64,000 bases of DNA from Pirellulales bacterium (lineage in GTDB: Bacteria; Planctomycetota; Planctomycetia; Pirellulales; Lacipirellulaceae). Below, piece by piece: positions 2,966 to 44,995 of the stretch (position 1 is its first letter; each line of letters begins with the position of its first letter). A program made the position numbers and the translations under genes. The stretch is from contig JBFWSG010000004.1 in assembly GCA_050248495.1 (NCBI GenBank), positions 23,686 through 87,685 of the forward strand, written 5' to 3'. The notes beneath the pieces are model-generated. The model was not told the DNA's origin. It was given only the letters and a program-made list of their open reading frames with translations, and did not search any database.

Positions 2966-3008
2966 TGCTGAGGCCGCGCTTTGTATTTCTTCGCCGATCG
3001 GCCCGGTT

Positions 3009-3030
3009 CGACCCAGGATGGGTCGGCTAT
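3009..3030. repeat. REP-like palindromic unit, type B (CGACCCAGGATGGGTCGGCTAT)
   Basis: CGACCCA-GGA-TGGGTCG is a perfect hairpin followed by GCTAT. It is the reverse-orientation analogue of type A and recurs twice at 40440-40488. Confidence 0.7.
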
Positions 3031-3038
3031 TTGCGCTG

Positions 3039-10527: not shown

Positions 10528-11319
10528 ATGAAGTGGAACTTTTTGGGAGCGCTCATGATGAGCATCGCCCTGGCGAGCCCAAGTTTTGCGACTTGCTGCT
10601 TGCTGGACAAGATGCTCGGGGGCGGCTGCGGATGCTGCGAAGAGGCAAGCTGCAGCTGTTGTGAAAAATCGTGCTGCTGCGAGGAAGCGTCCTGCGGTTG
10701 TGAAGACAGCTGCTGCTCCTCGTGCGGCTGCGGCGGCGGTGGCTGCTGCGTGCTCGATCGGCTGAGCGGCTTGTTCAGCTGTCATCACGGCTGCGGCTGC
10801 TGCGAAGCCAGCTGCGGTTGTGAAGAAGCTTCTTGCTGTGCCGAAGCCTCGTGCGGCTGCGAAGATAGCTGCTGCTCGAGCTGCGGTTGCAAGAAGGGCT
10901 GCTGCCTGTTGGACGGCCTGTGCGGCATGTTCAAGTGTCATCACGGCTGCGGCTGCTGCGAAGCCAGCTGCGGTTGTGAAGCTTCTTGCGGTTGCGAAGC
11001 CTCGTGCGGCTGCGAAGATAGCTGCTGCTCGAGCTGCGGCTGCAAGAAGGGCTGCTGCCTGCTCGGTGGCCTGTGCGGCCTGTTCGGTCACAATCACGGC
11101 TGCGGCTGCTGCGAAGCCAGCTGCTGCTGCGAGCCCAGCTGCGGCTGTGCCTCGTCGAGCTGTGGTTGCGAAGGTGGTGGCGACAGCGCCGCTCCTGCCG
11201 AAGAAGCTGCTCCTGAGGAGAACGCTTCGGCTCGCATGATCCCGCCGTTGCCGATGGCTGATCCGAATGCCTCGATCAGCCGCGAGCGCGACGTCGTCCG
11301 CACCAGCTTCACCCGCTAA
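10528..11319 (+). CDS. secreted, extremely cysteine-rich (about one-third Cys) tandem-repeat protein, metallothionein-like
   Basis: A GGAGA Shine-Dalgarno precedes the ATG at 10528. The signal peptide is MKWNFLGALMMSIALASPSFA. Three ~50-aa repeats follow (CHHGCGCCEASCGCE(E)ASC..EDSCCSSCGCKKGCCLL.GLCG.F) with CxC/CC motifs, Glu and His, and a Cys-free acidic tail. Confidence 0.8.
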   Translation: MKWNFLGALMMSIALASPSFATCCLLDKMLGGGCGCCEEASCSCCEKSCCCEEASCGCEDSCCSSCGCGGGGCCVLDRLSGLFSCHHGCGCCEASCGCEEASCCAEASCGCEDSCCSSCGCKKGCCLLDGLCGMFKCHHGCGCCEASCGCEASCGCEASCGCEDSCCSSCGCKKGCCLLGGLCGLFGHNHGCGCCEASCCCEPSCGCASSSCGCEGGGDSAAPAEEAAPEENASARMIPPLPMADPNASISRERDVVRTSFTR

Positions 11320-12325: not shown

Positions 12326-12348
12326 AACCAACGCAAGCTGCGTCAGCC

Positions 12349-12400
12349 ACATAGCCCGGCCATCCTGGCCGGAACAGGGTTTGGCCATCCCGGCCGGGAA
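12349..12400. repeat. REP-like element (two type-A-like palindromes)
   Basis: catagcccGGCCATCCTGGCCgg aacagggttt GGCCATCCCGGCCgg lies between two convergent genes. Confidence 0.65.
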
Positions 12401-17038: not shown

Positions 17039-17060
17039 GCGAGCTCGCTTCAGCGAGCGT
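17039..17060. repeat. hairpin repeat element GGCGAGCTCGC-TTCA-GCGAGCG (copy 1)
   Basis: The element occurs as three near-identical copies (17039, 18013, 18249). Each has a GCTCGC/GCGAGC stem with a TTCA loop. Confidence 0.7.
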
Positions 17061-17064
17061 GTAG

Positions 17065-17166
17065 CTCCACCCTCAACCCTCCACCCTCAACCCTCCACCC
17101 TCAACCCTCCACCCTCAACCCTCCACCCTCAACCCTCCACCCTCCACCCTCCACCCTCCACTCCAC
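17065..17166. repeat. C-rich tandem minisatellite: (CTCCACCCTCAACC)x5 then (CTCCACC)x3
   Basis: It lies directly upstream (within 5 nt) of the ATG at 17171. Confidence 0.8.
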
Positions 17167-17170
17167 ACTT

Positions 17171-18013
17171 ATGCACATCCCCTCGCACTGGACCCGCGGC
17201 ACCGCCACCATTCGCCTGCCCGATGGCCGCGAGTTCCCGCTCACCGTCTGGGGCTGGGCCAACGACAAAGCCGCCGCCCAACGAATTGCCGCCGAGCGCC
17301 TGCAGCGTGTCCAGGATCGGTTCCGCTCTGGCGACTGGCCCGATTGGTACGCCTACGGGTCGCGCCCGCTCCGCGAGGAAATCCTGCAAACCTTCCACGC
17401 CGACGGCGCCGCCGAACCCGTCGCCATCGTGACCCGCAACGGCTACGGCACCCAAGTCCTCAACACATCCTCCCTGCTCTTTCTCGACATCGACCGGCCG
17501 CTGCCCACCTTGCGACAGCGCCTCCCGCGTTGGCTCGGCGGCAAACCCGCCCCCACCGGCGAAGAAATCCTCTTCAGGCTCCGCCGCGCGCTCGAAGCGC
17601 ACGCGCCCACGACATTCCGCATCTACCAAACCGCCTGGGGCTGGCGCGTTGCCGCGGTCGACCGTGAATTCAATCCCACCAGCGACTCGACCCAATCGCT
17701 CATGCGCGCGACCGACACCGATCCGTACTACATGCGCCTCTGTCAGGTGCAGCAAAGCTTTCGCGCCCGATTGACCCCCAAACCGTGGCGCTGCCACGTC
17801 GCCCCGCCAACGTCCCAATATCCCCGCACGGACGAACAGGCCCAGCGCCAATTCGCCGCCTGGCTACGTGACTACGAGCAAAAAACAACCGGCCACGCCA
17901 CCTGCCGCTACCTCGAAACGGTCGGCACGAGCAAACCGAATTCAACCCTCGCGTCACTCCTGGAACTCCACGACACCGTCACCCGCAGCCACGAACCACT
18001 CCCGCTGGCCTAG
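17171..18013 (+). CDS. hypothetical protein (possibly a 5' portion of a longer gene interrupted at 18011)
   Basis: The 280-aa ORF has good GC3 bias. It ends at a TAG formed at the junction with hairpin repeat copy 2. Confidence 0.65.
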   Translation: MHIPSHWTRGTATIRLPDGREFPLTVWGWANDKAAAQRIAAERLQRVQDRFRSGDWPDWYAYGSRPLREEILQTFHADGAAEPVAIVTRNGYGTQVLNTSSLLFLDIDRPLPTLRQRLPRWLGGKPAPTGEEILFRLRRALEAHAPTTFRIYQTAWGWRVAAVDREFNPTSDSTQSLMRATDTDPYYMRLCQVQQSFRARLTPKPWRCHVAPPTSQYPRTDEQAQRQFAAWLRDYEQKTTGHATCRYLETVGTSKPNSTLASLLELHDTVTRSHEPLPLA

Positions 18014-18038
18014 GCGAGCTCGCTTCAGCGAGCGGGCG
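18013..18038. repeat. hairpin repeat element copy 2 (GGCGAGCTCGCTTCAGCGAGCGGGCG)
   Basis: It starts within the stop codon of 17171..18013. Confidence 0.7.
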
Positions 18039-18245
18039 ACTCAGCATCTGACACCCGCCACCTTCCGCACCTGCCGCCTCGAGTACGTGAAGCAAGCCCG
18101 CAACCCGCTCACGACCTCCCAGTCCCACCGTCTGCAACAACTCGACTACCGCCTGCAACTCGTGGCCGAAGGCCAAGCCTCCGCCGCGACAATCCGCAAC
18201 GAAGCCCTCGATACCCTCGACGCCTTCAATTGGTCCCTGCCCTAA
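18039..18245 (+). other. coding-like ORF segment without an ATG; it may be the displaced C-terminus of the 17171 gene or a small GTG-initiated gene
   Basis: Frame 0 is open from 18012 to the TAA at 18243-18245 with strong GC3 bias (TQHLTPATFRTCRLEYVKQARNPLTTSQSHRLQQLDYRLQLVAEGQASAATIRNEALDTLDAFNWSLP). Deleting 22 nt of the hairpin element (18012-18033) joins it in frame to the upstream gene. Confidence 0.4.
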
Positions 18246-18248
18246 TGC

Positions 18249-18274
18249 GGCGAGCTCGCTTCAGCGAGCGGGCG
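18249..18274. repeat. hairpin repeat element copy 3
   Basis: It is identical to copy 2 and lies 3 nt after the TAA at 18245. Confidence 0.7.
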
Positions 18275-18753
18275 TCCTGCCCCAAGACTTCGCCACGCTC
18301 GGATCACTCTTCGTCGCCAACCCCAACCACGCCCTGCGCTCGCCGCCATAGGCCGTTCGCACCATCAGGATTTGCGCCTCGACGATCGCTGGCGCCACGT
18401 AAGCACAATGCGCCAGCACAATCTCACGCAGCACGACTCGAACCAATCGCTGGCGAAACCGTCTCACGACTTCCATCGCATCTCTTCCAAAAAGGGTTCC
18501 AGCATGCAGGGGAAATACGCCACATCGCCTCAAGAGTTTCCCAGCCCCGTTCACAGCTCCTGTCCCTCATCCCAGGCCCGGGATTGTAGCCGGGCTTTAT
18601 GTCCACCAACTCCATACAATTCCGGGGAGGTCGAACGATAGTCGCAAATGCTGGCGTGCTTCCGTCAGGTGCTTGCTTCCATCGACCAGGGCCCGATAAT
18701 CTGCGCTCACAATCAATCGCCTCCTCCAGTTACTCCTCCTTCCGAGCGCGAAC

Positions 18754-19644
18754 GTGGGACGTCTTACATTTCTGGTGGTCTTCACGAGCAATGCATTGTT
18801 GCTGCCCACGGCCTGTTTTTCAGCCGTCTCGAAAATTGACTCACCGTCACAAATCGAAAGCGGCACCACGATTTCGTTCGACGGCATCCCGGATTTGACG
18901 GTTCTAAATACCTTGTATCAGAACCAAGGTGTCACGTTCACACGCGATGACGCGGGGCCAATCTTCGCATTTGACGTTGTCGCGATCGGTCGCATAACCA
19001 CGTCGCCGCGAAACGTCCTCGCGACGATTCAGGCCGGAAGTGCCTCTGGCCCGACCACCCATCTCAACGTGCTGACGACGGCGCCGGCCCAAGCGATCGG
19101 AGCCTACTTTGGCAATGATCAGAACAATCCCGACTTCAAGTCGATTCGCCTTTCGGCATACGGGCTCGCTGGCGAATTGCTGGGATCCGTCGAGTCCGCC
19201 GCAAACAACAACATCCACGTCGACCAGTTCATTGGACTACGGAGCGACTCGCCAATCGGCAGAGTCCGCTTCCAGAATTTGAATGCGACCGGGGGATTGG
19301 CGGGCGGCTACTCAGTGGTCATCGATGACCTGGTGTTCTCCTCCGCGGCGCCAAATGTCCCTGGCGATTTCAACGCCGATCAATTCGTGGACGCCGCGGA
19401 TTACACGACTTGGCGCGACCACCTGGGCACCAGCTTTAACCTCAACGGCAACGGGAGTGAAGAGGGCGCGAGCGCGGGCGTGGTCGACCTGGCCGACTAC
19501 GCCTTGTGGACGCAACATTTCGCGCAGCCTGGCAGTGCCAGTCACGGCAGCATTGTGCCCGAGCCCATCGCCGTGTTGACAATGTCGACGGCTTGTTGCT
19601 TCGTATGCTCAGTGCGCCGGCGCCAAATCAACCACATGAGGTAG
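18754..19644 (+). CDS. PEP-CTERM-anchored secreted protein with dockerin-like Ca-binding repeats
   Basis: It has a signal peptide and two dockerin-type segments (GDFNADQFVDAADYTTWRDHLG and VVDLADYALWTQHF). The C-terminus VPEPIAVLTMSTACCFVCSVRRRQ is a PEP motif plus a transmembrane helix and an Arg cluster, i.e. an exosortase sorting signal. Confidence 0.7.
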   Translation: MGRLTFLVVFTSNALLLPTACFSAVSKIDSPSQIESGTTISFDGIPDLTVLNTLYQNQGVTFTRDDAGPIFAFDVVAIGRITTSPRNVLATIQAGSASGPTTHLNVLTTAPAQAIGAYFGNDQNNPDFKSIRLSAYGLAGELLGSVESAANNNIHVDQFIGLRSDSPIGRVRFQNLNATGGLAGGYSVVIDDLVFSSAAPNVPGDFNADQFVDAADYTTWRDHLGTSFNLNGNGSEEGASAGVVDLADYALWTQHFAQPGSASHGSIVPEPIAVLTMSTACCFVCSVRRRQINHMR

Positions 19645-19848
19645 ACGAAGCGCAGCCGCTAACAGCGGAGGGGGAGAATCGAACTCGACCGGCGCAGGGG
19701 CCGATCCGGGCTGGGCTCATAAGGCTCGTTGCATCACCAGACGCGGGCCGCTCTCCTAGGCTGGGAGTCATAAGCACCAAAAAGCATCCACCAGATGAGA
19801 AACAGAGACATAGGGGAATAGCGACAAACCTGCTCTACCTGAGGTTGG

Positions 19849-20097
19849 CTATTCGTGGCTAAAGAACTCTTTGTCAGAAACGTTGTCTTTTTTGGACAAC
19901 TTAAACTTCTTGCGGACGCCAGCCACGTAACAATCTAGGATCTCGTCCTCTTTCTTCTGCTTGGGAATCGGATACGAGAAGATATTCCCGTTGATGTTCC
20001 GCTTGAACATCGTGTGGCTGCCCTTGCCGCGCGCGGTCTCTTCCCAGCAATCATAGTGCGATAGAATGCGGCGGAGCTTTCTTAGCGAATACGGCAC
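19849..20097 (-). CDS. hicA: HicA-like mRNA interferase toxin
   Basis: LRKLRRILSHYDCWEETARGKGSHTMFKR..YPIPKQKK matches the HicA consensus (GW....KGSH..F.....P.HKK). It has an approximately 30-aa C-terminal extension. Confidence 0.6.
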   Translation of the reverse strand: MPYSLRKLRRILSHYDCWEETARGKGSHTMFKRNINGNIFSYPIPKQKKEDEILDCYVAGVRKKFKLSKKDNVSDKEFFSHE

Positions 20098-20106
20098 GCG
20101 GACATT

Positions 20107-20529
20107 TTACACCGCGCACGTACTTCCACCAGCGTATTCCCGATACTGGCATTCCTCGATCTCGAACGAATCGATATGCCGTGGAGCGCTAACTTCCTTG
20201 AGCTGCAATTCGCCAATGGCGATGTTCTTCCCGGCGGCAAACATCTCAAAAAACTTGCCGTCAGCCGGGCTGAAAAGATTGGCCGGATTATCGTGCTCGA
20301 TTGAAGCCTCGATTTGAAGAGCGATTGCATCGCCCAATTGATCCAGCGCTTCCTCGCGGGTATCCCCGTCACCCATCAAATCGAATTCAAGGCAATGCGC
20401 AACCCAAGCGTTCCCTTCCTTGTAGAAGACGATGCGGATCGGCAATCGCATTGACTCTGCCATGAACTTCCTTACACGCGGCGCAACAAAACGGCCCGAC
20501 CTGAACGGCTGGGCCATGATCGTTTCCAT
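20107..20529 (-). CDS. hicB: HicB-like antitoxin (UPF0150/HicB N-terminal domain)
   Basis: PIRIVFYKEGNAWVAHCLEFDLMGDGDTREEALDQLGDAI is HicB-like. The start is likely METIMAQ at 20529, with an AGGAAA Shine-Dalgarno; the track start is 20568. Confidence 0.55.
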   Translation of the reverse strand: METIMAQPFRSGRFVAPRVRKFMAESMRLPIRIVFYKEGNAWVAHCLEFDLMGDGDTREEALDQLGDAIALQIEASIEHDNPANLFSPADGKFFEMFAAGKNIAIGELQLKEVSAPRHIDSFEIEECQYREYAGGSTCAV

Positions 20530-20686
20530 CTTTCCTGGTTTGACATCCCGATCATCCTGACAGTCCATTTAATCGGGTCGCTAATGCAACTATATCCAAC
20601 CAAACGGCCGAAAGCAAAAGACTGGTCATGCCCCCCAGAAGTGCCGTCAAATTGATGAAAACACCGAGAAATACGCGGCCGGCGCC

Positions 20687-20726
20687 CGCGCGGATAGCTT
20701 TCAAAGCTTTGAAAGCTATCCGCGCG
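20687..20726. promoter_or_regulatory. 40-bp perfect palindrome CGCGCGGATAGCTTTC-AAAGCTTT-GAAAGCTATCCGCGCG
   Basis: Two 16-nt arms around a palindromic 8-nt core were verified by eye. It lies about 160 bp upstream of hicB and about 340 bp upstream of the HNH gene. Confidence 0.75.
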
Positions 20727-21062
20727 CACACGATCTGTCAACGGATGGCGGGTGCCAGAGGTCAAAATGAGGGCGCCAACTCCGTTGTAAATCACGAGCT
20801 CGGCCGCTATGATGACGCCCGTAGAACGAAACGCTGGCCTCTGGGGTGTTGCACTCGCCACCCCAGGGGCCAACTTCGTTTTTCGACATTGACGAAAATG
20901 CGATAGCACTGTTAGACTGTTCACGTTGTAGGAGTCCTGTCCGAACGGATTCGAGCGTTTCGTTCTACAAGCCTCTCGCTCAGCCGCCTCTGGCTCGCAC
21001 TCCTGGTATTTGTTTCCGCGCACCCGGTGCGCGCTGACATCCTTTTTAAAGGAGTGCATGTC

Positions 21063-21359
21063 ATGTATTGCAATTGGACGCATGAGGAACGGTCTGCTGT
21101 GTGGTTCAAGGGTCGCGCTGTCCCCGGCGTCGATGGCGACAAGTGGCGTCTCGACGTTTGCGGAGCTTGGATCGGCTGGCAGTTCTACGGCAACCGCAAC
21201 TCGCAGTATGGATGGGAAGTGGACCACATTGATCCACGCGGCGGCGACGGGCTTCACAATCTTCAGCCGCTCCAATGGGAAAACAACGTAGCCAAAGGCG
21301 ACGGACACTTGGCATGCGTTGTTACGGCATCGGGCGTGGAGAACGTTGCCGTTCGTTAG
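21063..21359 (+). CDS. HNH endonuclease, small stand-alone
   Basis: An AAAGGAG Shine-Dalgarno lies 7 nt upstream of the ATG at 21063. The HNH motif is YGWEVDHIDPRGGDGLHNLQPLQWENNVAKGD. Confidence 0.7.
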   Translation: MYCNWTHEERSAVWFKGRAVPGVDGDKWRLDVCGAWIGWQFYGNRNSQYGWEVDHIDPRGGDGLHNLQPLQWENNVAKGDGHLACVVTASGVENVAVR

Positions 21360-21567
21360 TCCTTTCCCGCGTTCCCTCCGGATGACAGAGCGCGCTCGTG
21401 GCTAGATCGAAGTCCGCGCGCACAAACACTCTGTCGTCCTCTGGGACGGCATCCATAATCCGGCGGATGCACTCACAGAGTGCGTCCGCCTCTTCGTTTC
21501 CAAGGGTCAACGGGTAGTCCTGCTGCCGAACGCTTTCAAGCAGCAATCGGATTGTCGCGTTATTCAA
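21322..21567 (-). CDS. hypothetical small protein (81 aa)
   Basis: An AAGGAG Shine-Dalgarno lies 4 nt upstream of the ATG. It converges on, and overlaps, the 3' end of the HNH gene. Confidence 0.4.
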   Translation of the reverse strand: MNNATIRLLLESVRQQDYPLTLGNEEADALCECIRRIMDAVPEDDRVFVRADFDLATSALCHPEGTRERTNERQRSPRPMP

Positions 21568-21727
21568 TGGTGCTCCTTAGCCATCCAGCGCGGTCGCCCG
21601 GAATGCCAGGCGAAGGGGGCGGGATGGTCGCAGGGCCGCAGAATCGCGGCAAGACCGCAGAGACGCACTCGGCGTGCCGGCGGCGACATTGTGGTAAGCT
21701 GGGCGAAATTCCGCCGGGGGTCCGACT

Positions 21728-21782
21728 CGCACACTTACATCCAGCACCACCTCGCTTTGGGTGGTGCTGGATTAAGTGTGCG
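21728..21782. terminator. long hairpin with a 23-bp stem and one bulge, directly downstream of the 21788..22432 gene
   Basis: cgcacacttaCatccagcaccacc-tcgctttg-ggtggtgctggattaagtgtgcg. Its left arm is part of a 39-bp direct repeat shared with 25788-25825. Confidence 0.55.
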
Positions 21783-21787
21783 GGGAT

Positions 21788-22432
21788 TTACGCGTGCCGA
21801 TAGCGTAGGTCGGGTATTCGGACGCCATAGCCAGCGCAGACATCGCACTCAGCTTCTATGCGCCCGAACTTATGGCCAGTGCCCTTGCATATCTGGCATT
21901 TGGGATAGTGGGACAATTCACCGGGAAGCTCGCCGGTGCCACCACACTTGCTGCAAATAGCTTCTATGCGATTCCATTTCAGACCAGAGCCTTTACACAG
22001 AGGGCATCTCATGGGCGGAATCGAATCTGCCGGATCGTTGCTTCCCGTTTTGCCTTCACGCACCATTCTTCGGTGAAGCATGAAATCGGCGATGGTTGCT
22101 GGTGTAAATCGCGGGATTTTAGGGAGGGCGGTAGACTTCACTACTGTGGTAATGGTCGCTGGCGATGGCGAAGCTGTAACTCCGTGAAATGTTTCCAGAA
22201 GTCCCCGCAATTTCGGAAGATTGACAACGACAATGATCGTCAGCCCAAGTAGGCAAAGTCCGGTTCGTACGATGTCATGGCTAAGAATCGTTGCGACAGC
22301 GTTGAACGCCATCCCCCAATTCCGGATGTCATCCGGCAGGCCACCCAAGCCAATAATACCAATTACAGTACCTAGCACGTTCCCTACTCGGCGCACGTTG
22401 CGCCACGGTGGTACGTTCCAATCGACAGCCAT
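21788..22432 (-). CDS. membrane protein (2 predicted transmembrane helices) with four DnaJ-type CXXCXGXG zinc-finger repeats
   Basis: The repeats are CPLCKGSG, CSKCGGTG, CQICKGTG and CDVCAGYG in the C-terminal 80 aa. The transmembrane helices are VLGTVIGIIGLGGL and LCLLGLTIIVVVNL. GC is about 52%. Confidence 0.6.
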   Translation of the reverse strand: MAVDWNVPPWRNVRRVGNVLGTVIGIIGLGGLPDDIRNWGMAFNAVATILSHDIVRTGLCLLGLTIIVVVNLPKLRGLLETFHGVTASPSPATITTVVKSTALPKIPRFTPATIADFMLHRRMVREGKTGSNDPADSIPPMRCPLCKGSGLKWNRIEAICSKCGGTGELPGELSHYPKCQICKGTGHKFGRIEAECDVCAGYGVRIPDLRYRHA

Positions 22433-22518
22433 GCCATGCTCCTACGACTTGACGCGCGCAGCCGTAGGCCATACCATGCAATCACCTAGATTGTGCATGG
22501 CCTACGTGGTCATTCAAA

Positions 22519-22551
22519 AGCTGACGGCTCCACCCGTCAGCTTTTTTGTTG
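22519..22551. terminator. hairpin plus T-run (agctgacgg-ctccac-ccgtcagct-ttttttg)
   Basis: The 9-bp stem lies between the zinc-finger membrane gene and the transposase. It is palindromic and could function on either strand. Confidence 0.45.
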
Positions 22552-22601
22552 CGTGAATTATATCGACTCTCTGCACAAAGCTACAGTGGCGGGGGCACCA
22601 C

Positions 22602-23561
22602 CTAGTCCGCCATCACATTCTCAATCATTTCTCGCACCGACCACACCTTTGTTGCAACGCCGTGGGCAACGGCCGGCGTCAGCCCTTTCAATGTCTTGTG
22701 TTGACGGCAATAGTTGTAATGACAGAAGTACACGGCCAGCGCGGCACGGTGGTTGTTCCACTTCTTTGAGAAGCAGTAGGTCAAGCGGCCCATGCGCTTC
22801 ATGTGGGTGCGGATGCTGCCGTTCATTCGCTCAACGTGCGAGGTGCATATCTGATCTTGTTGGAATGGCGTGCCGTGCATCGGGGTCCGGCTGGCCCCTA
22901 TTATCCGAGCCGGTGAGTACCGGCGCTGGTCCTCGTAGACATTGACGCCGTATATCTTTTGCATCACGCCGTGGTCGACGCGGTGTCCAAGCTGCTTTTT
23001 GATTTCGCTTGGATAGCTCCGCCAGCCGTCGCTACTAACGTGGAAGTGACCGAACGTGGCCCGGTCCAGTTTGGCGATGAACTGCTCGGTGTGCTGCTGG
23101 CTGCGGCGGCCCATGTGCCAAGTAATGAGCAGCTTTGATTGGCGGTCGATGGCGGTGTAGCAATAGCTGTCGCCGCAGCCGCCAACCATCTTCTGCGCTT
23201 TTGTGGTCGCGTTTTTTGCTAAAATAAATTGCCAAATTTCGTCCACCTGGGTGTCGCTGACAAACACGTCCTTAATGTGTTCGGCCATGTACTTTTCGCA
23301 GTGCTCGCCGAGCATCGTGAGCAGCGAGAGGATCGTCATTAAGTCGGTGCCGGTGAAGCGGGCGGTGGCGCGAACATTCATGCCCTCGCACAGCAGCTCG
23401 ACGATCTTGGCGGCTTGCTCAACGCCGATCCGCATGCCGCCCAGCATGGCGGTGGATTCGGTCCAGGACGCGCCGCAGCTCTTGCAGCGGTAGCGGGTGG
23501 CCCCGGCCTTAGTTTTCCCATTCGTGCGGCGGTTCTCATGCTGACAGACGGCGGCAATCAT
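22602..23561 (-). CDS. DDE transposase, IS1595-family-like
   Basis: An N-terminal zinc ribbon (RYRCKSCGASWTE) is followed by a DDE-like core (DEIW..., AIDR, SDGWRSY). The C-terminal motif is YFCHYNYCRQHKTLKGLTPAVAHG. Confidence 0.75.
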   Translation of the reverse strand: MIAAVCQHENRRTNGKTKAGATRYRCKSCGASWTESTAMLGGMRIGVEQAAKIVELLCEGMNVRATARFTGTDLMTILSLLTMLGEHCEKYMAEHIKDVFVSDTQVDEIWQFILAKNATTKAQKMVGGCGDSYCYTAIDRQSKLLITWHMGRRSQQHTEQFIAKLDRATFGHFHVSSDGWRSYPSEIKKQLGHRVDHGVMQKIYGVNVYEDQRRYSPARIIGASRTPMHGTPFQQDQICTSHVERMNGSIRTHMKRMGRLTYCFSKKWNNHRAALAVYFCHYNYCRQHKTLKGLTPAVAHGVATKVWSVREMIENVMAD

Positions 23562-23756
23562 TGCGAAACTTCCCCGTTCTTAGGGCCTTCGCTATGATTC
23601 AGTTCTCTAGGCTGGAATCTGGCGAAAGCCGGTTCTAGTTGCCCCCGGTCGCGTGCCAACGCTTCCGGGGGTTTACTTTTGCCTACATTTATTCTACCCA
23701 TAATTAATCGGCATTGCAAGGGTTGACGCAAGATTATTTATGGGTATATTTATGGC

Positions 23757-23933
23757 ATGGAAAACAAACGAGGCAGGCCGCCTAAGGCCCCAGAAGACCG
23801 CAGGACTGAGGACATCAAAATCCCACTGAGCGAAGCGGAGAAGCAGCAGATTCAATCTGCGGCCGAATCCGACGACGCCAAGCCCGTTACATGGGCCAGG
23901 AACGTGCTCTTGAGGGCCGCCAAGAGGCGGCTG
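23757..23933 (+). CDS. small ribbon-helix-helix DNA-binding protein (MobC/CopG-like), 58 aa
   Basis: This ORF is absent from the track because it is under 60 aa. It translates to MENKRGRPPKAPEDRRTEDIKIPLSEAEKQQIQSAAESDDAKPVTWARNVLLRAAKRRL. The RGRPPK, K-I-P-L-S-x-x-E and VTWARNVLLRAA pattern is typical of MobC-type RHH proteins. Confidence 0.5.
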
Positions 23934-24199
23934 TGAGCGGAGAGCAGGGGTTACGATCCCAGCCGCGAAAAGTTTGCACGGCCCCCTTCGGCGGGTTATA
24001 AACCACGCTACGCCAGCCAAGACGCGGGCCGCTCTCCGATAGAGAACGGTCTGTTGAGGCTTAGAATGTGGCGAACATGTTTCTAAGACACCTACGCTAC
24101 TGCTTGGTTCGCGGCTGGTTATTGATGCACCCAGAGCGATGCGCCAGAGGCCGTTATGGACGATTGATAAGGCGCACCCGAAGATACAGGCAAAGTAGG

Positions 24200-25699
24200 A
24201 TGACTACGGTCGATGCAGCGATCAATCCAAGTAAAAGTTTACCCGACCACTGGAGCGAATCGATGTCCGACATCACGTCGGTAAACGAGCAAATCGCTGC
24301 ATTGACGCAACGATTAGCCAATGTGAATGAGTCGGCAAATGCGTATGCGACTGCCGGACACGTGTTCGCCGCGGCCATAGCGCTCTTCACGGCCGCAGTA
24401 TTCTTTACATCGTATTTGGGGGCAAGTAAAACGCGGCAGGTTAAGAAAATCAGCGACGAACTTGCAACTGCTAGGGAAGCGCAGCTGAGTTTGATTCTTG
24501 CTGACAAAGACGCCAAGATCGGTGCAGCTAACGCGACGGCAGCTACAGCGAATGCCGAAGCAGCCAAGGCAAACGAGGGCCTCGCAAAGGCAGGCCTCGA
24601 TATTGAGGACCGCAAGAATGAGAACCTGAAATTGGAGTCGCAGGTTACCACTCTCCGAACAGCGGCCGCCAAAGCTGATGCAGCACTTGAGGAAACCCGA
24701 ATTAAGGCGGCAGAAGCGCTTGAGGGTCTCGCGGAAACCGGGGAATGGCAGCGAATACAAGAAATGATTCGCTCGGAGATCGAAGAAGAGCTGACCCCGC
24801 GAGGCGTTAACATAGAGTTGGCTAGTGCCAACATTCTAAAAGAGTTTCGCGGGACGAAATTCTTCGTGACAACGCCAACAGAAGTAGAGCCGATAAGGCT
24901 GGGTAAGGGAATTGAAGATTTGCTGTTAGAGTCAGGGTGGGAGCGTGTCGCGCCACTCTCGGCGATTGTCGAATCCGAAGAGTTTGAATTCGATAACAAC
25001 GTGACATTCAAGTCAAACTTTCGATCCGAGGAAGAATTAAAACCGGCAGTATATGCACTTGCCATCGTCCTGCAAAAAGAGCGAATTGACTGTTTCCATT
25101 TCATCGACACTTCTCCCAAGAGAGGGCAACCGCCAATTCCTAAAGGTGCCATTAGCATCGTCGTGGGACCAAAGCGCACAACGTACTCCAGGCAATTGAC
25201 CGACAGGGCGGACTCACCTCGGTGGGATGCTCGGCAGAAAGCGATGGTAGAGCTTGAGGGCCGCCGCGAAACAAAAGCACCACCAGATGCCTCCCTGCTC
25301 GGCCCCATGTCTGAAAATGCGTGGCGCGTCTTTGCAGAATGCGCGCCAACTTCAGGAGACGCAGTGTTAGTTGGAAATTCAATGAACGATCCGGCGGATG
25401 AATGGGTCGTCGGCGTCCGCGATGGATTGTTGGTGGCCGGATGGACCGTGGTATCGACCGTGCTATTCGACGAACAGCGTATGCTCGGCATTGAGCGCAA
25501 CGCCGTAATTCTTCGTAAGAACGCGCCAGCAGCACGCAGGCAACAGGCGGAGAAATTGCACAAGGCGCTCTCTGATGCCGGGTTCCAGCCAGTTTTTGTG
25601 GAGACAGAATCGCCGCCGAAAGGATTCGCGGTGTGCGTGTTAATTGGCGGTCCCGGAGATGGCGCGCAGGGCGACACTGGCCCGGCCAAACCGGAGTAG
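24200..25699 (+). CDS. hypothetical membrane-anchored coiled-coil protein (about 500 aa)
   Basis: The start is likely MTTVDAAI at 24200; the track start at 24068 gives an implausible Arg-rich leader. It has one transmembrane helix (HVFAAAIALFTAAVFFTSYL), about 120 aa of Ala/Lys/Glu coiled coil, then a C-terminal domain of about 300 aa with two related sub-modules. No family was recognised. Confidence 0.6.
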   Translation: MTTVDAAINPSKSLPDHWSESMSDITSVNEQIAALTQRLANVNESANAYATAGHVFAAAIALFTAAVFFTSYLGASKTRQVKKISDELATAREAQLSLILADKDAKIGAANATAATANAEAAKANEGLAKAGLDIEDRKNENLKLESQVTTLRTAAAKADAALEETRIKAAEALEGLAETGEWQRIQEMIRSEIEEELTPRGVNIELASANILKEFRGTKFFVTTPTEVEPIRLGKGIEDLLLESGWERVAPLSAIVESEEFEFDNNVTFKSNFRSEEELKPAVYALAIVLQKERIDCFHFIDTSPKRGQPPIPKGAISIVVGPKRTTYSRQLTDRADSPRWDARQKAMVELEGRRETKAPPDASLLGPMSENAWRVFAECAPTSGDAVLVGNSMNDPADEWVVGVRDGLLVAGWTVVSTVLFDEQRMLGIERNAVILRKNAPAARRQQAEKLHKALSDAGFQPVFVETESPPKGFAVCVLIGGPGDGAQGDTGPAKPE

Positions 25700-25787
25700 A
25701 AAGTGTTAATCACGGCGCACCCCCTGCGGAGTCGCCGCTTTTCGGACTCGCGGAACGCACCCACGACCGGACAAGGCGCCTCACTGC

Positions 25788-25825
25788 TGCCGGGGGACCG
25801 ACTCGCACACTTAATCCAGCACCAC
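25788..25825. repeat. direct repeat of 21713-21751 (gccgggggWccgactcgcacacttaMatccagcaccacc)
   Basis: Of 38 nt, 37 match copy A with one extra base, and the match extends a further 10 nt (gccctttgg vs tcgctttgg). The two copies bracket 4.07 kb holding the zinc-finger membrane gene, the transposase, the RHH gene and the coiled-coil gene. Confidence 0.6.
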
Positions 25826-26431
25826 CGCCCTTTGGCACACCCGTTGCATCTAATCCGTCGTCGCCTGAACGATCAGGCACCAAGCGTTCGGAACAAACGC
25901 TCGGGGCCGAACAGAGAAGAGGCATTTTGTCTGGGGTCGGTCGGCGAAGAGGCAAATCTGCCGTGTTCGGATCTGCATATCAGGAAAGAAGTTAGCGAGA
26001 TCTGCCCACCTCCCACAGAAACTCGCAAACCAGGCGCATTTCCGACACGTCACGGGCGAGTCGCGGTCTTCCGAGAGGCTAGACCACGACTCGCCCATCT
26101 TTTTTGACTGTTGCAAAATCGTACATGTGTATTTTTCCAATACACTTTTCTGGGACACTTCGTCACCCACCTGCCAGTCGACAAATCACGTCCGCAGAAT
26201 TTTTCCAAGATTTTCTCGGCCGCCAATTCGCGGAATCGCTCGACCCGCAAATCCACGACTGCTCAACTGTGTGTCCCCCGGTTGAGCAGTCGCAAAAAGC
26301 CGGCAAAAAGTGGTAGCCGCCCGTTGAACAGTCGCCCCCTTTTTTTCCGACACCTCGCACCGCCTGCGGACGTTAGAACGTGGGGCAGCCAAATCCGCGC
26401 GGTCGATCATAATCAAGCAATGAGGATCTCA

Positions 26432-26491
26432 CCGCTAATCCGCGCTAATGGACGCTAATTTCCATTAGCGCTCCTTAGCGACAATTAGCGG
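26432..26491. promoter_or_regulatory. heptamer dyad array: 3 direct CGCTAAT units followed by 3 inverted (A)TTAGCG units
   Basis: ccgctaat ccgcgctaat ggacgctaat ttcc attagcg ctcc ttagcg acaattagcg. The centre (cgctaat-ttcc-attagcg) is a perfect palindrome. The array ends about 25 bp before the GTG start at 26515. Confidence 0.55.
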
Positions 26492-26514
26492 TTTGCTTTA
26501 CCGGGACCAAGGCT

Positions 26515-28275
26515 GTGGCGCACGTCACTCGACCATCGCAGGTGCTCGCATTCGCCGCGGTCGCACTGTTGACACAGGCTGCATTCTTTCATCGCACGGC
26601 TCGCGCCGCGGACCAGGTCGTCGCCAGCGCTGCGACGGCGCCCGCGCGATCGGCCGGTGACGCCAACACGCCGCCGGAAGTGGCCCTGATCGACGAGGCG
26701 ATTTCGGCCGCCTGGGCGGACCAGAATCTCGCTCCCTCCCCGCCGGCTAGCGATGGCGAGTGGTGCCGCCGCGTGTATCTCGACATCCTGGGCCGCATCC
26801 CGACCGTCACCGAGCTGCGCCAATATTTTGCCGACCGGAAACGCGACAAGCGGGCCCGGCTGGTCGACCGGTTGCTCGGCCCCGAATATCGCGACGAGTA
26901 CGTCCACAACTGGACGACGATCTGGAGCAACGTCCTCATCGGCCGGACGGGCGGCACCGATCGCCGCTCGCTCACCAGCCGCGAAGGGATGCAGGTGTAT
27001 CTGAGCGAGGCGCTGGCTTACAACCGGCCGTACGACCAGATGATGCGCGAGCTGGTCACCGCCACGGGCGCCTGCCGGCCGGAGGACAAGAATTTCAACG
27101 GCGCGGCCAATTTCCTGGCCGACAAGATGGAAGAGAATGGCGTGCAGGCCACGGCCAAAACGGCCCAGATTTTTCTGGGCATGGCGGTGCAGTGCACGCA
27201 GTGTCACAACCATCCCTTCAACGAGTACCAGCAGAACCAGTTCTGGGAGCTCAACGCCTTCTTCCGCCAGACCCGCGTGCGGCGGATTCGGCTCGATGAC
27301 CAGCGGCAGCGGTTCGCGGGCCGCGTGGTCGACCGCGACTACCGCGGCGAGACGGGCGACGTTGCGAAAGCCGACCTGTTCTACGAGCTCCGCAACGGCC
27401 AGATGAAGGTCGCCTACCCGGTATTCGTCGACGGCACGTCGCTGGCCGAAGTCTACAAGGAGAAGGGTGAGGATTTTGGCGATCATGGCAAACTCAGCGA
27501 CGTCAACCGCCGCGAGGAGCTGGCCAAGTTGATCGCCGGGTCGCGTGAGTTTGATCGGGCAATCGTGAATCAGATTTGGGGCCATTTCTTCGGTTACGGA
27601 TTCACGAAGCCGGTCGACGACATCGGCCCGCACAACACGCCGTCCCACCCCGAGCTCCTCGACCAGCTCGGCCAATCGCTGCGCCGCGCGGAGTTCGACC
27701 TCAAGCAACTGATGCGGTGGATCGCGCTCTCGGAAGCGTACAGCCTGTCGAGCCGCACGACGAAGAAGAACGAGGCCGACGATCCGGAGCTGGGAGCGCG
27801 GCCGATGTTCACCCATTTCTACCTGCGGCAGATGGAGGCCGAGCAGCTGTACGAGTCGCTGCTGGTGGCGACCGCGGCCGACCAGACGGTGCAGAGCGAC
27901 GAGCGACGGGACGAGGTCCGCGAGCGGTGGCTGCGACAATTCAGCAAGGCTTTCGGCACAGACGACGGCGGCGAATCGACGAGTTTTAATGGCACGATCC
28001 CACAGGCGCTCGCGTTGATGAACGGGCCGCTGGTAAAACGGGCCACGGGCAACCAGGGGGGCAGCATGCTGGCCTGGGTGGCCGAGCATCCGAAGATGAA
28101 CAGCGCCGAGAAGATCCGCTACTTGTACCTGGCGGCGCTGTCGCGGCGACCGACGAAACCGGAGATCGCCTTGTCGAACGATCTGCTGGCGGCCCGCAAC
28201 GGGAATGTCGGGGCGGCGCTGCAAGACATTTGGTGGGCACTTTTGAATAGTAACGAGTTCATATTGATACACTAA
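26515..28275 (+). CDS. DUF1549/DUF1553 domain protein (planctomycete PSD1-like family)
   Basis: CTQCHNHPFNEYQQNQFWELNAFF is a DUF1549 signature. WALLNSNEFILIH is the DUF1553 C-terminal signature. A signal peptide is present and the gene starts with GTG. Confidence 0.8.
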   Translation: MAHVTRPSQVLAFAAVALLTQAAFFHRTARAADQVVASAATAPARSAGDANTPPEVALIDEAISAAWADQNLAPSPPASDGEWCRRVYLDILGRIPTVTELRQYFADRKRDKRARLVDRLLGPEYRDEYVHNWTTIWSNVLIGRTGGTDRRSLTSREGMQVYLSEALAYNRPYDQMMRELVTATGACRPEDKNFNGAANFLADKMEENGVQATAKTAQIFLGMAVQCTQCHNHPFNEYQQNQFWELNAFFRQTRVRRIRLDDQRQRFAGRVVDRDYRGETGDVAKADLFYELRNGQMKVAYPVFVDGTSLAEVYKEKGEDFGDHGKLSDVNRREELAKLIAGSREFDRAIVNQIWGHFFGYGFTKPVDDIGPHNTPSHPELLDQLGQSLRRAEFDLKQLMRWIALSEAYSLSSRTTKKNEADDPELGARPMFTHFYLRQMEAEQLYESLLVATAADQTVQSDERRDEVRERWLRQFSKAFGTDDGGESTSFNGTIPQALALMNGPLVKRATGNQGGSMLAWVAEHPKMNSAEKIRYLYLAALSRRPTKPEIALSNDLLAARNGNVGAALQDIWWALLNSNEFILIH

Positions 28276-28282
28276 AGGGAAT

Positions 28283-28364
28283 GACGAATGACCAATTCCT
28301 AATGACGAATGAATACGGTAGGCGGACGTACATACGTCATTGGGCATTCGGAATTCGTCATTCC
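28283..28364. repeat. TGACGAATGA / TCATTCGTCA repeat cluster (family also at 44897-44995 and 63480-63580)
   Basis: aatgacgaatgacc...taatgacgaatgaatac...cgtcattggg...ggaattcgtcattcc. The last unit is the exact reverse complement of ggaatgacgaattcc at 44899. Confidence 0.6.
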
Positions 28365-28382
28365 GCAGCGAAGGTTGCCACT

Positions 28383-29654
28383 ATGAAATGCGACTGCAGT
28401 ATTCCCCCCGGCATGACCCGGCGTCATTTCATGCGTCACCTGGCCGGTGCGTCGGCGCTGGCGCTCCCGGCGTTTGCGTTCACGCGGACACTGCGGGCCA
28501 ACGCTCCGGCGCTCTCGAAGGCGCACAAGTCGGCGATTCTGATCTGGCTCGGCGGTGGTCCACCGACGATCGACATGTGGGACCTCAAGCCGGGCGCCCC
28601 GACCGCCGGCCCGCTCAAGCCGATCAACACGACCGGCGATTTTCAGATCAGCGAGCGGTTGCCCAAGCTGGCCGAGCAGGGGAAGCACCTGGCGATCGTC
28701 CGCGCGATGAGCACCCGCGAGGCCGACCACGAGCGCGGCCGCTACTACATGCACACCGGCTACGTGCCGAACCCGAGCGTCGAGTATCCCAGCTACGGCT
28801 CTGTGATTTCGCACGAGCTCGAAGACCTGGTGCCGCAGCTCGAGATTCCGCCGTTCGTGTCGATCGGGGGCCCCAGCGAAGGGCCGGGCTTTTTGGGAAT
28901 GGCCTACGCGCCGTTCCAGGTCGACGCCAACGGCAACGTCCGCGACACCGAGATGAGCGTTCCCTGGCAGCGGATGGTCGATCGGCTCAAGCTCCTTGAA
29001 GCCGTCGAAACGCGATTCATCCGCGAGCGGCGCGGCAGCGCCGCCGAGGAGCACGCCAAGGTGCTTAAGAAGACGCAGGATTTGCTCACGAGCGACCAGA
29101 TGAAGGCGTTTCAGGTCCGCAGCGAGGAGCAGAAGGTCCAGGATCGCTACGGCAACACGAACGTCGGCCGCAGCTGCCTGATGGCGCGACGCCTGGTGGA
29201 GGTCGGCGTGCCGTTCGTCGAGGTCGACTTCGGCGGCTGGGACCTGCACAAGGACTGCTTCACGACGCTCGACACGAAGCTGCCGGAGCTTGACCAGGCG
29301 TACAGCGCGCTCCTGGAAGACCTCGCCCAGCGCGGATTGCTCTCGAACACGGTGGTGCTGTGCATGGGCGAGTTCGGCCGTACGCCGCGGATCAACGGCG
29401 ACGCCGGCCGCGACCATTTTGCCCGCGCGTGGAGCGCGGTCCTCTCGGGCGGCGGCATCCGCGGCGGCCACGCGATCGGCAAGACCAACGCCGACGGGAC
29501 AAGTGTCGACACTGAGCCGTTCTCATCCGAAGACCTGATGGCCTCGGTGCTGAAGGCGCTCGACATCTCGCTGGAAACTACCTTCACAACGCCCAGCGGC
29601 CGCCCGATGAAAATCGCTAACAGCGGCCGGGTCATTGGCGAGCTGTTTGCGTAA
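28383..29654 (+). CDS. DUF1501 domain protein (sulfatase-like fold, Tat-type signal), usual partner of DUF1549/DUF1553
   Basis: The Tat signal is MTRRHFMRHLAGASALALPAFAF. DUF1501 hallmarks are present (LIWLGGGPPTIDMWDLKP, GGGIRGG). The start is placed at 28383 because the track's first 34 codons lie in the repeat cluster. Confidence 0.8.
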   Translation: MKCDCSIPPGMTRRHFMRHLAGASALALPAFAFTRTLRANAPALSKAHKSAILIWLGGGPPTIDMWDLKPGAPTAGPLKPINTTGDFQISERLPKLAEQGKHLAIVRAMSTREADHERGRYYMHTGYVPNPSVEYPSYGSVISHELEDLVPQLEIPPFVSIGGPSEGPGFLGMAYAPFQVDANGNVRDTEMSVPWQRMVDRLKLLEAVETRFIRERRGSAAEEHAKVLKKTQDLLTSDQMKAFQVRSEEQKVQDRYGNTNVGRSCLMARRLVEVGVPFVEVDFGGWDLHKDCFTTLDTKLPELDQAYSALLEDLAQRGLLSNTVVLCMGEFGRTPRINGDAGRDHFARAWSAVLSGGGIRGGHAIGKTNADGTSVDTEPFSSEDLMASVLKALDISLETTFTTPSGRPMKIANSGRVIGELFA

Positions 29655-40371: not shown

Positions 40372-40439
40372 TCAAGATGACGAGGCGGCGATTGGCAATG
40401 GCGGCACTTGACCGAATCAAGGCGGGCGGCGAATTCATT

Positions 40440-40512
40440 CGACCCTGGATGGGTCGGCTATTTTTCACGACCCAAGATGGGTCGGCTATATAGCCCGGCC
40501 ATCTTGGCCGGA
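40440..40512. repeat. REP-like array: two type-B units plus one type-A unit
   Basis: cgaccctggatgggtcggctat ttttca cgacccaagatgggtcggctat atagcccggccatcttggccgg. Confidence 0.7.
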
Positions 40513-40532
40513 AAAAGTGGCGCAAAAAAGAA

Positions 40533-44896: not shown

Positions 44897-44995
44897 TTAC
44901 TCCAGGAATGACGAATTCCCAATGACGAATGACGAATGACGAATGAGGTTTCGTGGTGCCGAGCTTCGTCATTAGTCATTCGACATTAGTCATTG
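44897..44995. repeat. TGACGAATGA / TCATTCGTCA repeat cluster
   Basis: ggaatgacgaattcc caatgacgaatgacgaatgacgaatga ... cgtcattagtcattcgacattagtcattgac. Confidence 0.6.

Follow-up and report, generated by a model that had tools for sequence, protein, structure and literature searches.

The DNA analysed here is a 64-kb stretch from a Pirellulales bacterium (GenBank assembly GCA_050248495.1, contig JBFWSG010000004.1), and the whole of this stretch is called the window; loci and contigs fetched for comparison carry L-numbers. The subject is an island at 19.6-25.8 kb of the window, which has a G+C content of 0.53-0.59, compared with 0.61-0.67 in the neighbouring sequence, and is followed by a DUF1549/DUF1553 gene (26515-28275) and then a DUF1501 gene. 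The island contains a direct repeat in two copies, A (21713-21751) and B (25789-25826). Between them are the genes for a zinc-finger membrane protein, a transposase, a ribbon-helix-helix (RHH) protein and a coiled-coil protein. A preliminary description of the DNA had reported this gene content correctly, except for the family of the transposase.

Local alignment of A (21713-21760) with B (25789-25835) gave 48 columns with 44 identities, three mismatches and one 1-nt indel, which is an extra C at 21738 in copy A. The similarity is far above chance (blastn-short E = 9e-11 within the window). The preliminary description had given a 39-mer with a 37/38 match; this match, plus the indel, was reproduced, the position reported for copy B (25788-25825) being off by one. 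The identity extends 9 bp past the 39-mer, across the loop of a hairpin, and no third copy of the repeat was found within the 64-kb window. Both repeat junctions were found base for base in the NCBI contig L003 of a metagenome-assembled genome (MAG; GCA_050246575.1, equal to window 17860-28857) and in the Logan contig L004 (window 20697-25888).

The hairpin has arms at 21728-21751 and 21760-21782 and an 8-nt loop, with a DNA minimum free energy of -29.6 kcal/mol (z = -8.9). Copy A forms its left arm, and copy B is complementary to its right arm at 23/23 positions, both as described before. Copy B is without a partner arm and has no fold (z = +1.9). It had been suggested that the repeat might be a transcription terminator module, reused 3' of independently acquired cassettes. 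The great stability of the copy A hairpin would suit such a role, and so would its place downstream of convergent open reading frames (ORFs) of 81 and 110 aa on one side and of the zinc-finger gene on the other. However, copy B is a single arm without a fold, a T-run follows neither copy, and a terminator scan calls neither of them; moreover, the arms are transposon ends, which flank 8-bp duplications in the relatives. A terminator is hardly credible, whereas the other half of that suggestion, two independently acquired gene sets, is retained below.

The preliminary description had named a generic repetitive extragenic palindromic (REP) element at many loci as a finding that would refute its proposal; the refuting result did not appear. 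A related alternative is a generic dispersed repeat, of the REP or miniature inverted-repeat transposable element type, present here twice by chance. A true REP-like family does occur elsewhere in the window, and in the contig L001 two ends face each other across 8 bp, a transposase gene being absent within 3 kb. However, the repeat has only two copies in 64 kb, and the 22-nt hairpin arm was found exactly in 2 of 185,579 species-representative genomes, with one copy in each, and in no viral contig. In all informative relatives, moreover, the repeat is tied to a transposase module at the DUF1549-DUF1501 locus, and a chance pair of dispersed repeats is extremely improbable.

The unit with matched ends is not the segment between the direct repeats. 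It is a complete IS1-family transposon with passenger genes, here called E2, of 4,067 bp (21760-25826). Its left terminal inverted repeat (TIR), GGTGGTGCTGGATTAAGTGTGCG (21760-21782, + strand), is the right arm of the hairpin and begins with GGTGGTG, which fits the pattern GGnnnTG. The right TIR is the reverse complement of GGTGGTGCTGGATTAAGTGTGCG at 25804-25826, with a match of 23/23. The end consensus of the family, GGTGGTG-N6-TAAGTGTG, occurs in the window only at 21760-21780 (+) and 25806-25826 (-), where 0 occurrences are expected. Inverted repeats close to the transposase gene, as expected for an insertion sequence of ~1 kb, were looked for between 22433-22640 and 23540-23760, and none were found; the ends of E2 lie 0.8 and 2.3 kb away from this gene.

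Copy B (25789-25826, +) is the right end of E2, composed of 15 subterminal bp (25789-25803) and the TIR (25804-25826). Copy A (21713-21751, +) lies outside E2 and is the right end of a neighbouring element, here called E1, with 15 subterminal bp (21713-21727) and a TIR that contains a 1-nt insertion (21728-21751). The repeats are thus transposon ends, as had been proposed, but they are not the two ends of one 4-kb unit; the unit with the transposase is bounded by the inverted repeats, and copy A belongs to its neighbour. The extra C in copy A forms a bulge in the hairpin, which is consistent with the decay of an inactive end. A copy-A-type sequence of 38-39 nt also closes the lone element of L005 on the right, where it directly abuts the host leader. 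Between the right end of E1 and the left end of E2 is an 8-bp spacer, TCGCTTTG (21752-21759), and the junction alignment places the 8 bp GCCCTTTG (25827-25834) outside the right end of E2; these are read as the left and right copies of the E2 target duplication.

The E2 transposase (22602-23561, - strand) has 319 aa in a single ORF, with an N-terminal zinc-binding domain. It matched Pfam DDE_Tnp_IS1 (41.4 bits, cut-off 24.1), NCBIfam transpos_IS1 (100.3 bits, cut-off 100) and NCBIfam IS1_IS1595_Zn, the N-terminal zinc domain common to IS1 and IS1595 (33.1 bits, cut-off 28). The NCBIfam scan gave no match to an IS1595 transposase model, and the earlier label of IS1595-like is replaced by IS1 family. 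In tblastn comparisons the protein shared 25% identity with IS1A over 83% of its length (E = 2e-8), and 38% identity with annotated IS1-family transposases. The candidate DDE residues D107, D178 and E244 are invariant across 24 homologues.

E1 is the remnant of an older sister transposon (approximately 19648 to 21751), which contains a tRNA-like gene, four passenger ORFs and the right TIR; the transposase, the RHH gene and the left end are missing. Its homology to the element of L006 begins at 19648, and the left truncation lies four bases after the stop codon (19644) of a PEP-CTERM-type gene (18754-19644). The order in E1 (tRNA-like gene, cargo, right inverted repeat) is the order in the complete elements of L005, L006, L089 and L091.

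These features are best explained by two related IS1-family transposons, arranged head to tail in a lineage-specific hot spot upstream of the DUF1549-DUF1501 operon; we put the probability of this reading at about 0.8. E2 would have inserted into the 8 bp directly outside the right end of E1, so that the right repeat of E1 and the left repeat of E2 face each other across an 8-bp spacer and make up the hairpin. Copies A and B are direct repeats because E1 and E2 share their orientation, and their similarity exceeds the 23-bp TIR because the 15 subterminal bp of the right end and the 8-bp target are homologous as well. The transposase presumably binds the 23-bp ends, and the left part of E1 might have been lost through deletion. 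An apparent composite unit with direct repeats is then resolved into two stacked transposons, and the hairpin would be a by-product of end-to-end insertion.

One of the two genomes from the arm scan, like further loci fetched through the DUF1549 protein, shows synteny with the right flank of the window. On the host side, the homology starts at 25789 in L005, at 25792 in L006 and at 25820 in L007 and L008, and the sequence to the left of these points varies. The recurring order is transposase (-), RHH gene (+), tRNA-like gene (-), variable cargo, copy-B-type sequence and host leader. Judged by sequence comparison, the E2-like architecture is homologous in L007, L089, L091, L095 and L096. The element of L091, a marine genome, has TIRs that match at 21/21 positions and a perfectly duplicated 8-bp flank, CGCATTTG; its left junction reads ...CCACC CGCATTTG / GGTGGTCTGTGATTATGTGTT..., and its right junction ...AACACATAATCACAGACCACC / CGCATTTG GCACGG.... 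Identical 8-bp flanks on both sides were also found in L089 (CGCTATTG), in L007 (TCCCTTTG), around a complete element of L011 that is inverted relative to the others (AAAGAAGG), and in L096 (GGCCGTTA), where the site lies inside the TIR of an older, inverted element.

More distant relatives came from a metagenome scan with a transposase profile, in which the matches listed were mostly distant and few were close. At least eight such elements, of 2.3-3.2 kb and with ~38-40% transposase identity, have ends that read GGTAGTGGGTCAGTTTGAAA... (GGTAGTGG...). Their perfect 8-bp duplications lie at unrelated sites, namely GAATGGCG, ACAAATAG, GCTTTTCT, CGGAATGC, TGACCGCG, TGTCCTTG and CAGTGGCC, which indicates that the family transposes with an 8-bp duplication.

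These comparisons also bear on the earlier suggestion of attachment (att) sites. In its full form, a site-specific recombinase would move a 4-kb integrative element, for which the 48-bp direct repeats would serve as attL/attR-type sites, with the sequence common to them as the crossover core. The direct repeats do flank a segment of low G+C content, the same site is occupied in relatives, and copy A resembles an attP-type palindrome, with copy B as a hybrid site. However, no tyrosine or serine recombinase was found among the 10 ORFs scanned across 18.7-28.3 kb, where the DDE transposase is the only DNA-rearranging enzyme, and the unit with matched ends (21760-25826) is bounded by inverted repeats. 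The elements also occur in both orientations at the site, one of them sits inside the end of another with an 8-bp duplication, and the family duplicates 8 bp at unrelated targets. An integrative element with att sites is very improbable.

Stacking of elements, as proposed for E1 and E2, recurs at this locus. In related Pirellulales, one to three elements lie upstream of the DUF1549-DUF1501 operon, in either orientation, the L011 element and the older L096 element being inverted relative to the others. L005 and L006 represent the E2-less state, as they have no second element and their right end, of the copy A type, lies directly on the leader. The arrangement end / 8 bp / end is seen again at junctions in L007, L089, L011 and L001. 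In L011 the new copy abuts a resident end, with 16 further bases before the leader. L095 contains three successive tRNA-like genes and two sets of RHH and transposase genes, and L096 has two transposase genes, the newer element sitting within the end of the older one. Transposase fragments, seen in L006, L089, L095 and L011, represent decayed stacked copies. The related copies in differing orientations and nested positions, with fresh 8-bp duplications, are indirect evidence of past transposition. The stacking, together with the loose correlation between transposase and DUF1549 described below, suggests a turnover of elements at the site.

The junction in L001 (4962-5011 of CAWKBP010000006.1, a Planctomycetota MAG) was observed separately. 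The right-hand end at this junction shares 22 identical nt with the left end of E2; no transposase gene was found within 3 kb, which contain only 41 nt left over from the 3' end of a transposase gene, and an ORF with DnaJ-type zinc fingers. The junction may stem from a stack that has decayed or from a derivative that lacks the transposase.

A comparable preference is known from IS30, in which a new copy lands beside a resident terminal repeat and produces an end-to-end junction with a short spacer (PMC9333248). By analogy, new copies in Pirellulales may be drawn to the edge of a resident end, which we consider somewhat better supported than not. The two systems have in common the insertion beside a resident end and the end-to-end junction. 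However, the spacer here is 8 bp, the length of the target duplication, whereas it is 2 bp in IS30; both relative orientations occur here, whereas IS30 has only junctions between left and right inverted repeats (IRL-IRR); and the junctions here are old and stable. The IS1 family itself has been reported to form circles with abutted ends, in references cited in bioRxiv 10.1101/2023.06.07.543989.

Close homologues (at least 56% transposase identity) with enough sequence context lie 2.3-5.7 kb from DUF1549-DUF1501 in nine of nine loci (the window, L006, L007, L011, L089, L090, L091, L095 and L096), four of which (L011, L091, L095 and L096) had been chosen without reference to this operon. The genes carried from the tRNA-like gene to the right end differ in every genome examined; they include ORFs of 82, 153, 110 and 81 aa, a coiled-coil protein, DUF1828 with DUF6978, a 230-aa ORF, a 455-aa ORF, PemK and MT-A70. 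The contigs L091-L094 had seemed to be strains with the same transposase and different cargo, but they are the same DNA with differing gene calls.

Such constancy of place and variety of cargo raise another explanation, namely a platform retained by the host, in which a domesticated transposase, the RHH protein and the tRNA-like RNA capture and stack cassettes at a fixed chromosomal site, with the logic of an integron and a DDE enzyme; the repeated ends would then act as the boundaries of the cassettes. The same site is occupied in 9/9 informative genomes over a deep divergence (DUF1549 identity as low as 56-59%), the transposase ORFs have remained intact and keep invariant DDE candidates, the cargo is fully different among relatives, the tRNA-like RNA is under structural selection, and most homologues were seen on a single contig. 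However, ordinary transposition produces just such ends and 8-bp duplications, distant relatives sit at unrelated sites, the orientation at the site varies, and stacked copies decay (transposase fragments in L006, L089, L095 and L011). The co-divergence of transposase and host gene was tried as a test of domestication and was set aside, since the identities of transposase and DUF1549 are only weakly correlated (r = 0.58; Spearman 0.39, p = 0.08). Transposase lineages that track the host so loosely resemble the turnover of selfish elements. We regard a host-retained platform as unlikely.

Several observations weigh against the reading as two stacked transposons. The two flanks of E2, TCGCTTTG and GCCCTTTG, agree in no more than 6 of their 8 positions (chance ~0.004 by binomial arithmetic), and a target duplication for this copy is therefore suggestive rather than proven. 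E1 has no left end, and its status as an element rests on the comparison with relatives. The 15 subterminal bp common to A, B and L005 are conserved beyond what the reading accounts for. Signs of mobility of E2 in the source organism, such as an empty site, a circle or a second copy, were not seen; the one other contig with an identical DUF1549 protein is identical to the window. All data come from metagenome assemblies. The constant occupancy of the locus over family-level divergence could partly reflect an ancient insertion that was inherited, instead of repeated homing, and vertical descent contributes to the persistence at the locus to some extent. Finally, two ends in L090 (8524-8560 and 10940-11013) are in direct orientation, each after leader-like sequence (GCAC..GTT.G), and one of them is also preceded by the 16-nt tip of another end. 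Simple head-to-tail stacking would not give such an order, which points to a rearrangement involving the host leader as well.

Two tRNA-like genes are present in the island, both on the - strand and both resembling allo-tRNA(UAU). Gene 1, in E1 (19660-19756), has a degenerate 3' acceptor strand and scored 68.8 bits (E = 1.6e-12) with the covariance model R1; gene 2, in E2 (23934-24037), scored 89.6 bits (E = 3e-17). Gene 2 runs towards the RHH gene and overlaps the stop codon of the latter; in general, the tRNA-like genes have the cargo on one side and the RHH gene, or what remains of it, on the other. R1 matches two copies of the RNA in the window and also detects it in every close locus and in the distant loci L057 (82.7 bits) and L063 (42 bits). 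In L057 (272-3909) the transposase is 37% identical to that of the window, and the order is end, ~2.2 kb of cargo, tRNA-like gene and transposase; this architecture around a distant transposase suggests that the tRNA-like module is older than the Pirellulales clade. R1 found no match in the complete inverted element of L011, which implies that the RNA is common in the family and not indispensable. ARAGORN reported no tRNA in the window or in 13 loci. Both genes remain under the Rfam thresholds; at gene 1 the match was to tRNA-Sec and its 23 bits did not reach the gathering score.

A cloverleaf is the fold common to ten copies, taken from the window and its relatives; it has an acceptor stem of 9 bp, a 5-bp D stem, a long variable arm and a 3-bp T stem. 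The 7-nt anticodon loop CUUAUAA (CTTATAA in DNA), with the anticodon UAU, is near-invariant. Over these ten sequences 84.4% of the cells are paired, compared with 39-54% for slid partners; compensatory changes occur in 17 of the 27 pairs, and the observed values were reached in 0 of 500 shuffles. The acceptor helix has 81% of its cells paired and four pairs with double changes, the T stem is 100% paired with a middle pair that is AU in five sequences and GC in five, and the variable-arm helix has six pairs, five of them with double changes.

The allo-tRNAs have an acceptor branch of 9/3 or 8/4 instead of 7/5 (Mukai et al. 2017, PMC5389517), and the allo-tRNA(UAU) variants were inactive in E. 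coli translation (PMC5389517). In their sequence features, the tRNA-like genes described here match this published allo-tRNA(UAU) class. The similarities include a 12-bp acceptor branch (9/3 here), the long variable arm and the UAU loop, and the neighbouring genes are a transposon-related gene and toxin-antitoxin-like genes, as in the published cases (PMC5389517). There are also differences. The published cases are from Acidobacteria, Clostridia and Proteobacteria, whereas those here are from Pirellulales, and UAU was reported there mainly with 8/4 (PMC5389517), while 9/3 is the fold with the best support here. Moreover, the RNA gene here can be assigned to a defined transposon of the IS1 family, in which its position is fixed and abuts the RHH stop codon. 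A tRNA gene as integration site was considered and rejected; the Sec-like match is a gene carried by the element, and an 18-nt perfect repeat (19739-19756, identical to 24020-24037) is the common 5' end of the two tRNA-like genes, not an att duplication.

By the homology of its transposase and its GGnnnTG ends, E2 belongs to the IS1 family, for which ends of GGnnnTG and duplications of 8-9 bp have been reported (ISfinder values via PMC10425158; PMC6807381). It shares with IS1A and relatives the homologous DDE transposase, the IS1/IS1595 zinc domain and the form of the ends, and its own relatives show the 8-bp target duplications. However, the classical IS1 format of 740-1180 bp, with two ORFs joined by a frameshift and no passengers, does not describe it. 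E2 has 4.07 kb instead of 0.74-1.18 kb, one long transposase ORF of 319 aa instead of insA/insB with a frameshift, and it carries the RHH, tRNA-like and passenger genes; its close clade is also confined to one chromosomal locus. We therefore consider E2 (4,067 bp) a passenger-carrying relative of IS1, not a classical IS1. In ISfinder, IS1 also includes the single-ORF and ISMhu11 subgroups, with elements of up to ~4.6 kb.

The accumulation of elements at one conserved chromosomal position beside a conserved operon is similar to that of Tn7 at attTn7. However, no TnsD-like or CRISPR-type targeting proteins are present here, the orientation is not fixed, and the target is apparently the edge of the end of a resident element, not a host gene. 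The locus is also different from an integron, as no IntI was found, the boundaries are transposon ends with 8-bp duplications, and the cargo is on both strands.

The edge of the insertion hot spot is a conserved non-coding leader of the DUF1549-DUF1501 operon, ~680 bp long (25835-26514, +). Its identity to L005, L006 and L007 is 83-90% over the region from 25789 or 25820 to 26179, and the first ~40 nt (GCAC..TTGCAT.TA) are still recognisable in L089, L090 and L091. The part at 25835-26180 is conserved at least as well as the adjacent coding genes, and it has no Rfam match. The leader could be a regulatory RNA, a promoter, or part of what attracts transposons to the site.

In the IS1 family, the clade described here stands out by its passengers of 2-3 kb and, in Pirellulales, by being found solely at one chromosomal position. 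As the cargo differed in every genome examined, the locus is a predictable place to find accessory genes. Three features appear to be new to the literature: the confinement to one locus, the stacking beside or inside resident ends, and the allo-tRNA-like gene embedded at a fixed position. As this gene is fixed in a defined transposon and is supported by covariation, its role can be tested. A bolder and distinctly improbable proposal is that the Pirellulales clade has a conserved three-part machine of DDE transposase, RHH protein and allo-tRNA(UAU)-like RNA, in which the RNA would be a working component, for instance one that regulates insertion or directs it to the edge of a resident end, at a locus that serves the host as a stacking site for toxin-antitoxin-like or defence-like cargo. 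Were it true, it would give the orphan allo-tRNA(UAU) class its first function. Known mechanisms are not overturned by these findings.

The other protein genes of E2 are two passengers and the RHH gene. The 214-aa membrane protein (21788-22432, -) has DnaJ-type CxxCxGxG zinc-finger repeats (Pfam DnaJ_CXXCXGXG E = 4.8e-7, below the gathering score), and among all fetched loci tblastn found it only in the window and the identical contigs. The 59-aa RHH-type protein (23757-23936, +) is encoded divergently from the transposase and has a weak Pfam NikA-like match; its gene has the same position in L005, L006, L007, L009, L089, L090, L095 and L096. Between the transposase and RHH genes is an imperfect palindrome (23677-23764, repeat 23677-23709 / 23732-23764) with 33-nt arms that are 73% complementary. 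Divergent promoter-like sites at 23723-23750 (+) and 23719-23691 (-) overlap it, and it is probably the operator for the RHH protein. A membrane segment and a coiled coil characterise the last passenger (24200-25699, +), which has 499 aa, or 543 aa when read from a GTG at 24068. It had no family match in Pfam, NCBIfam or PADLOC, and it is missing from the related loci.

The passenger ORFs of E1, taken from the ORF list, encode 82 aa (19849-20097, -), 153 aa (20107-20568, -), 110 aa (21027-21359, +) and 81 aa (21322-21567, -). They matched nothing in PADLOC or NCBIfam, and a weak DUF7387 match of the 153-aa protein was the sole Pfam match. Labels such as HicA/HicB-like and HNH-like for this cargo come from reading by eye, without support from any tool. 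The PADLOC defence models gave no matches to any of the cargo proteins. A perfect 40-bp palindrome (CGCGCGGATAGCTTTCAAAG / CTTTGAAAGCTATCCGCGCG, 20687-20726) lies in the E1 cargo between the 153-aa and 110-aa ORFs, and the Logan contig L004 breaks exactly at this palindrome.

Other repeats of the window were also recorded. The dispersed REP-like family, which is partly palindromic and unrelated to A and B, has the forms ..CATAGCCCGGCCATCCTGGCCGG.. and TTCGACCCAGGATGGGTCGGCTAT.., with copies at 2924-2967, 12331-12374 and 40470-40513, and at 3007-3032, 40438-40463 and 40466-40491. A AATGACGAATGA-type motif occurs in direct and inverted copies at the DUF1549/DUF1501 junction (28278-28364), near which the L003 contig (GCA_050246575.1) terminates, and again 16.6 kb away (44905-44953). 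Upstream of the island, a 14-nt tandem repeat, CTCCACCCTCAACC, has ~9 units at 17051-17182. Finally, the region 10666-11199 contains repeats of 153-159 nt that are rich in Cys codons (TGC/GGC/GAA) and are probably coding.

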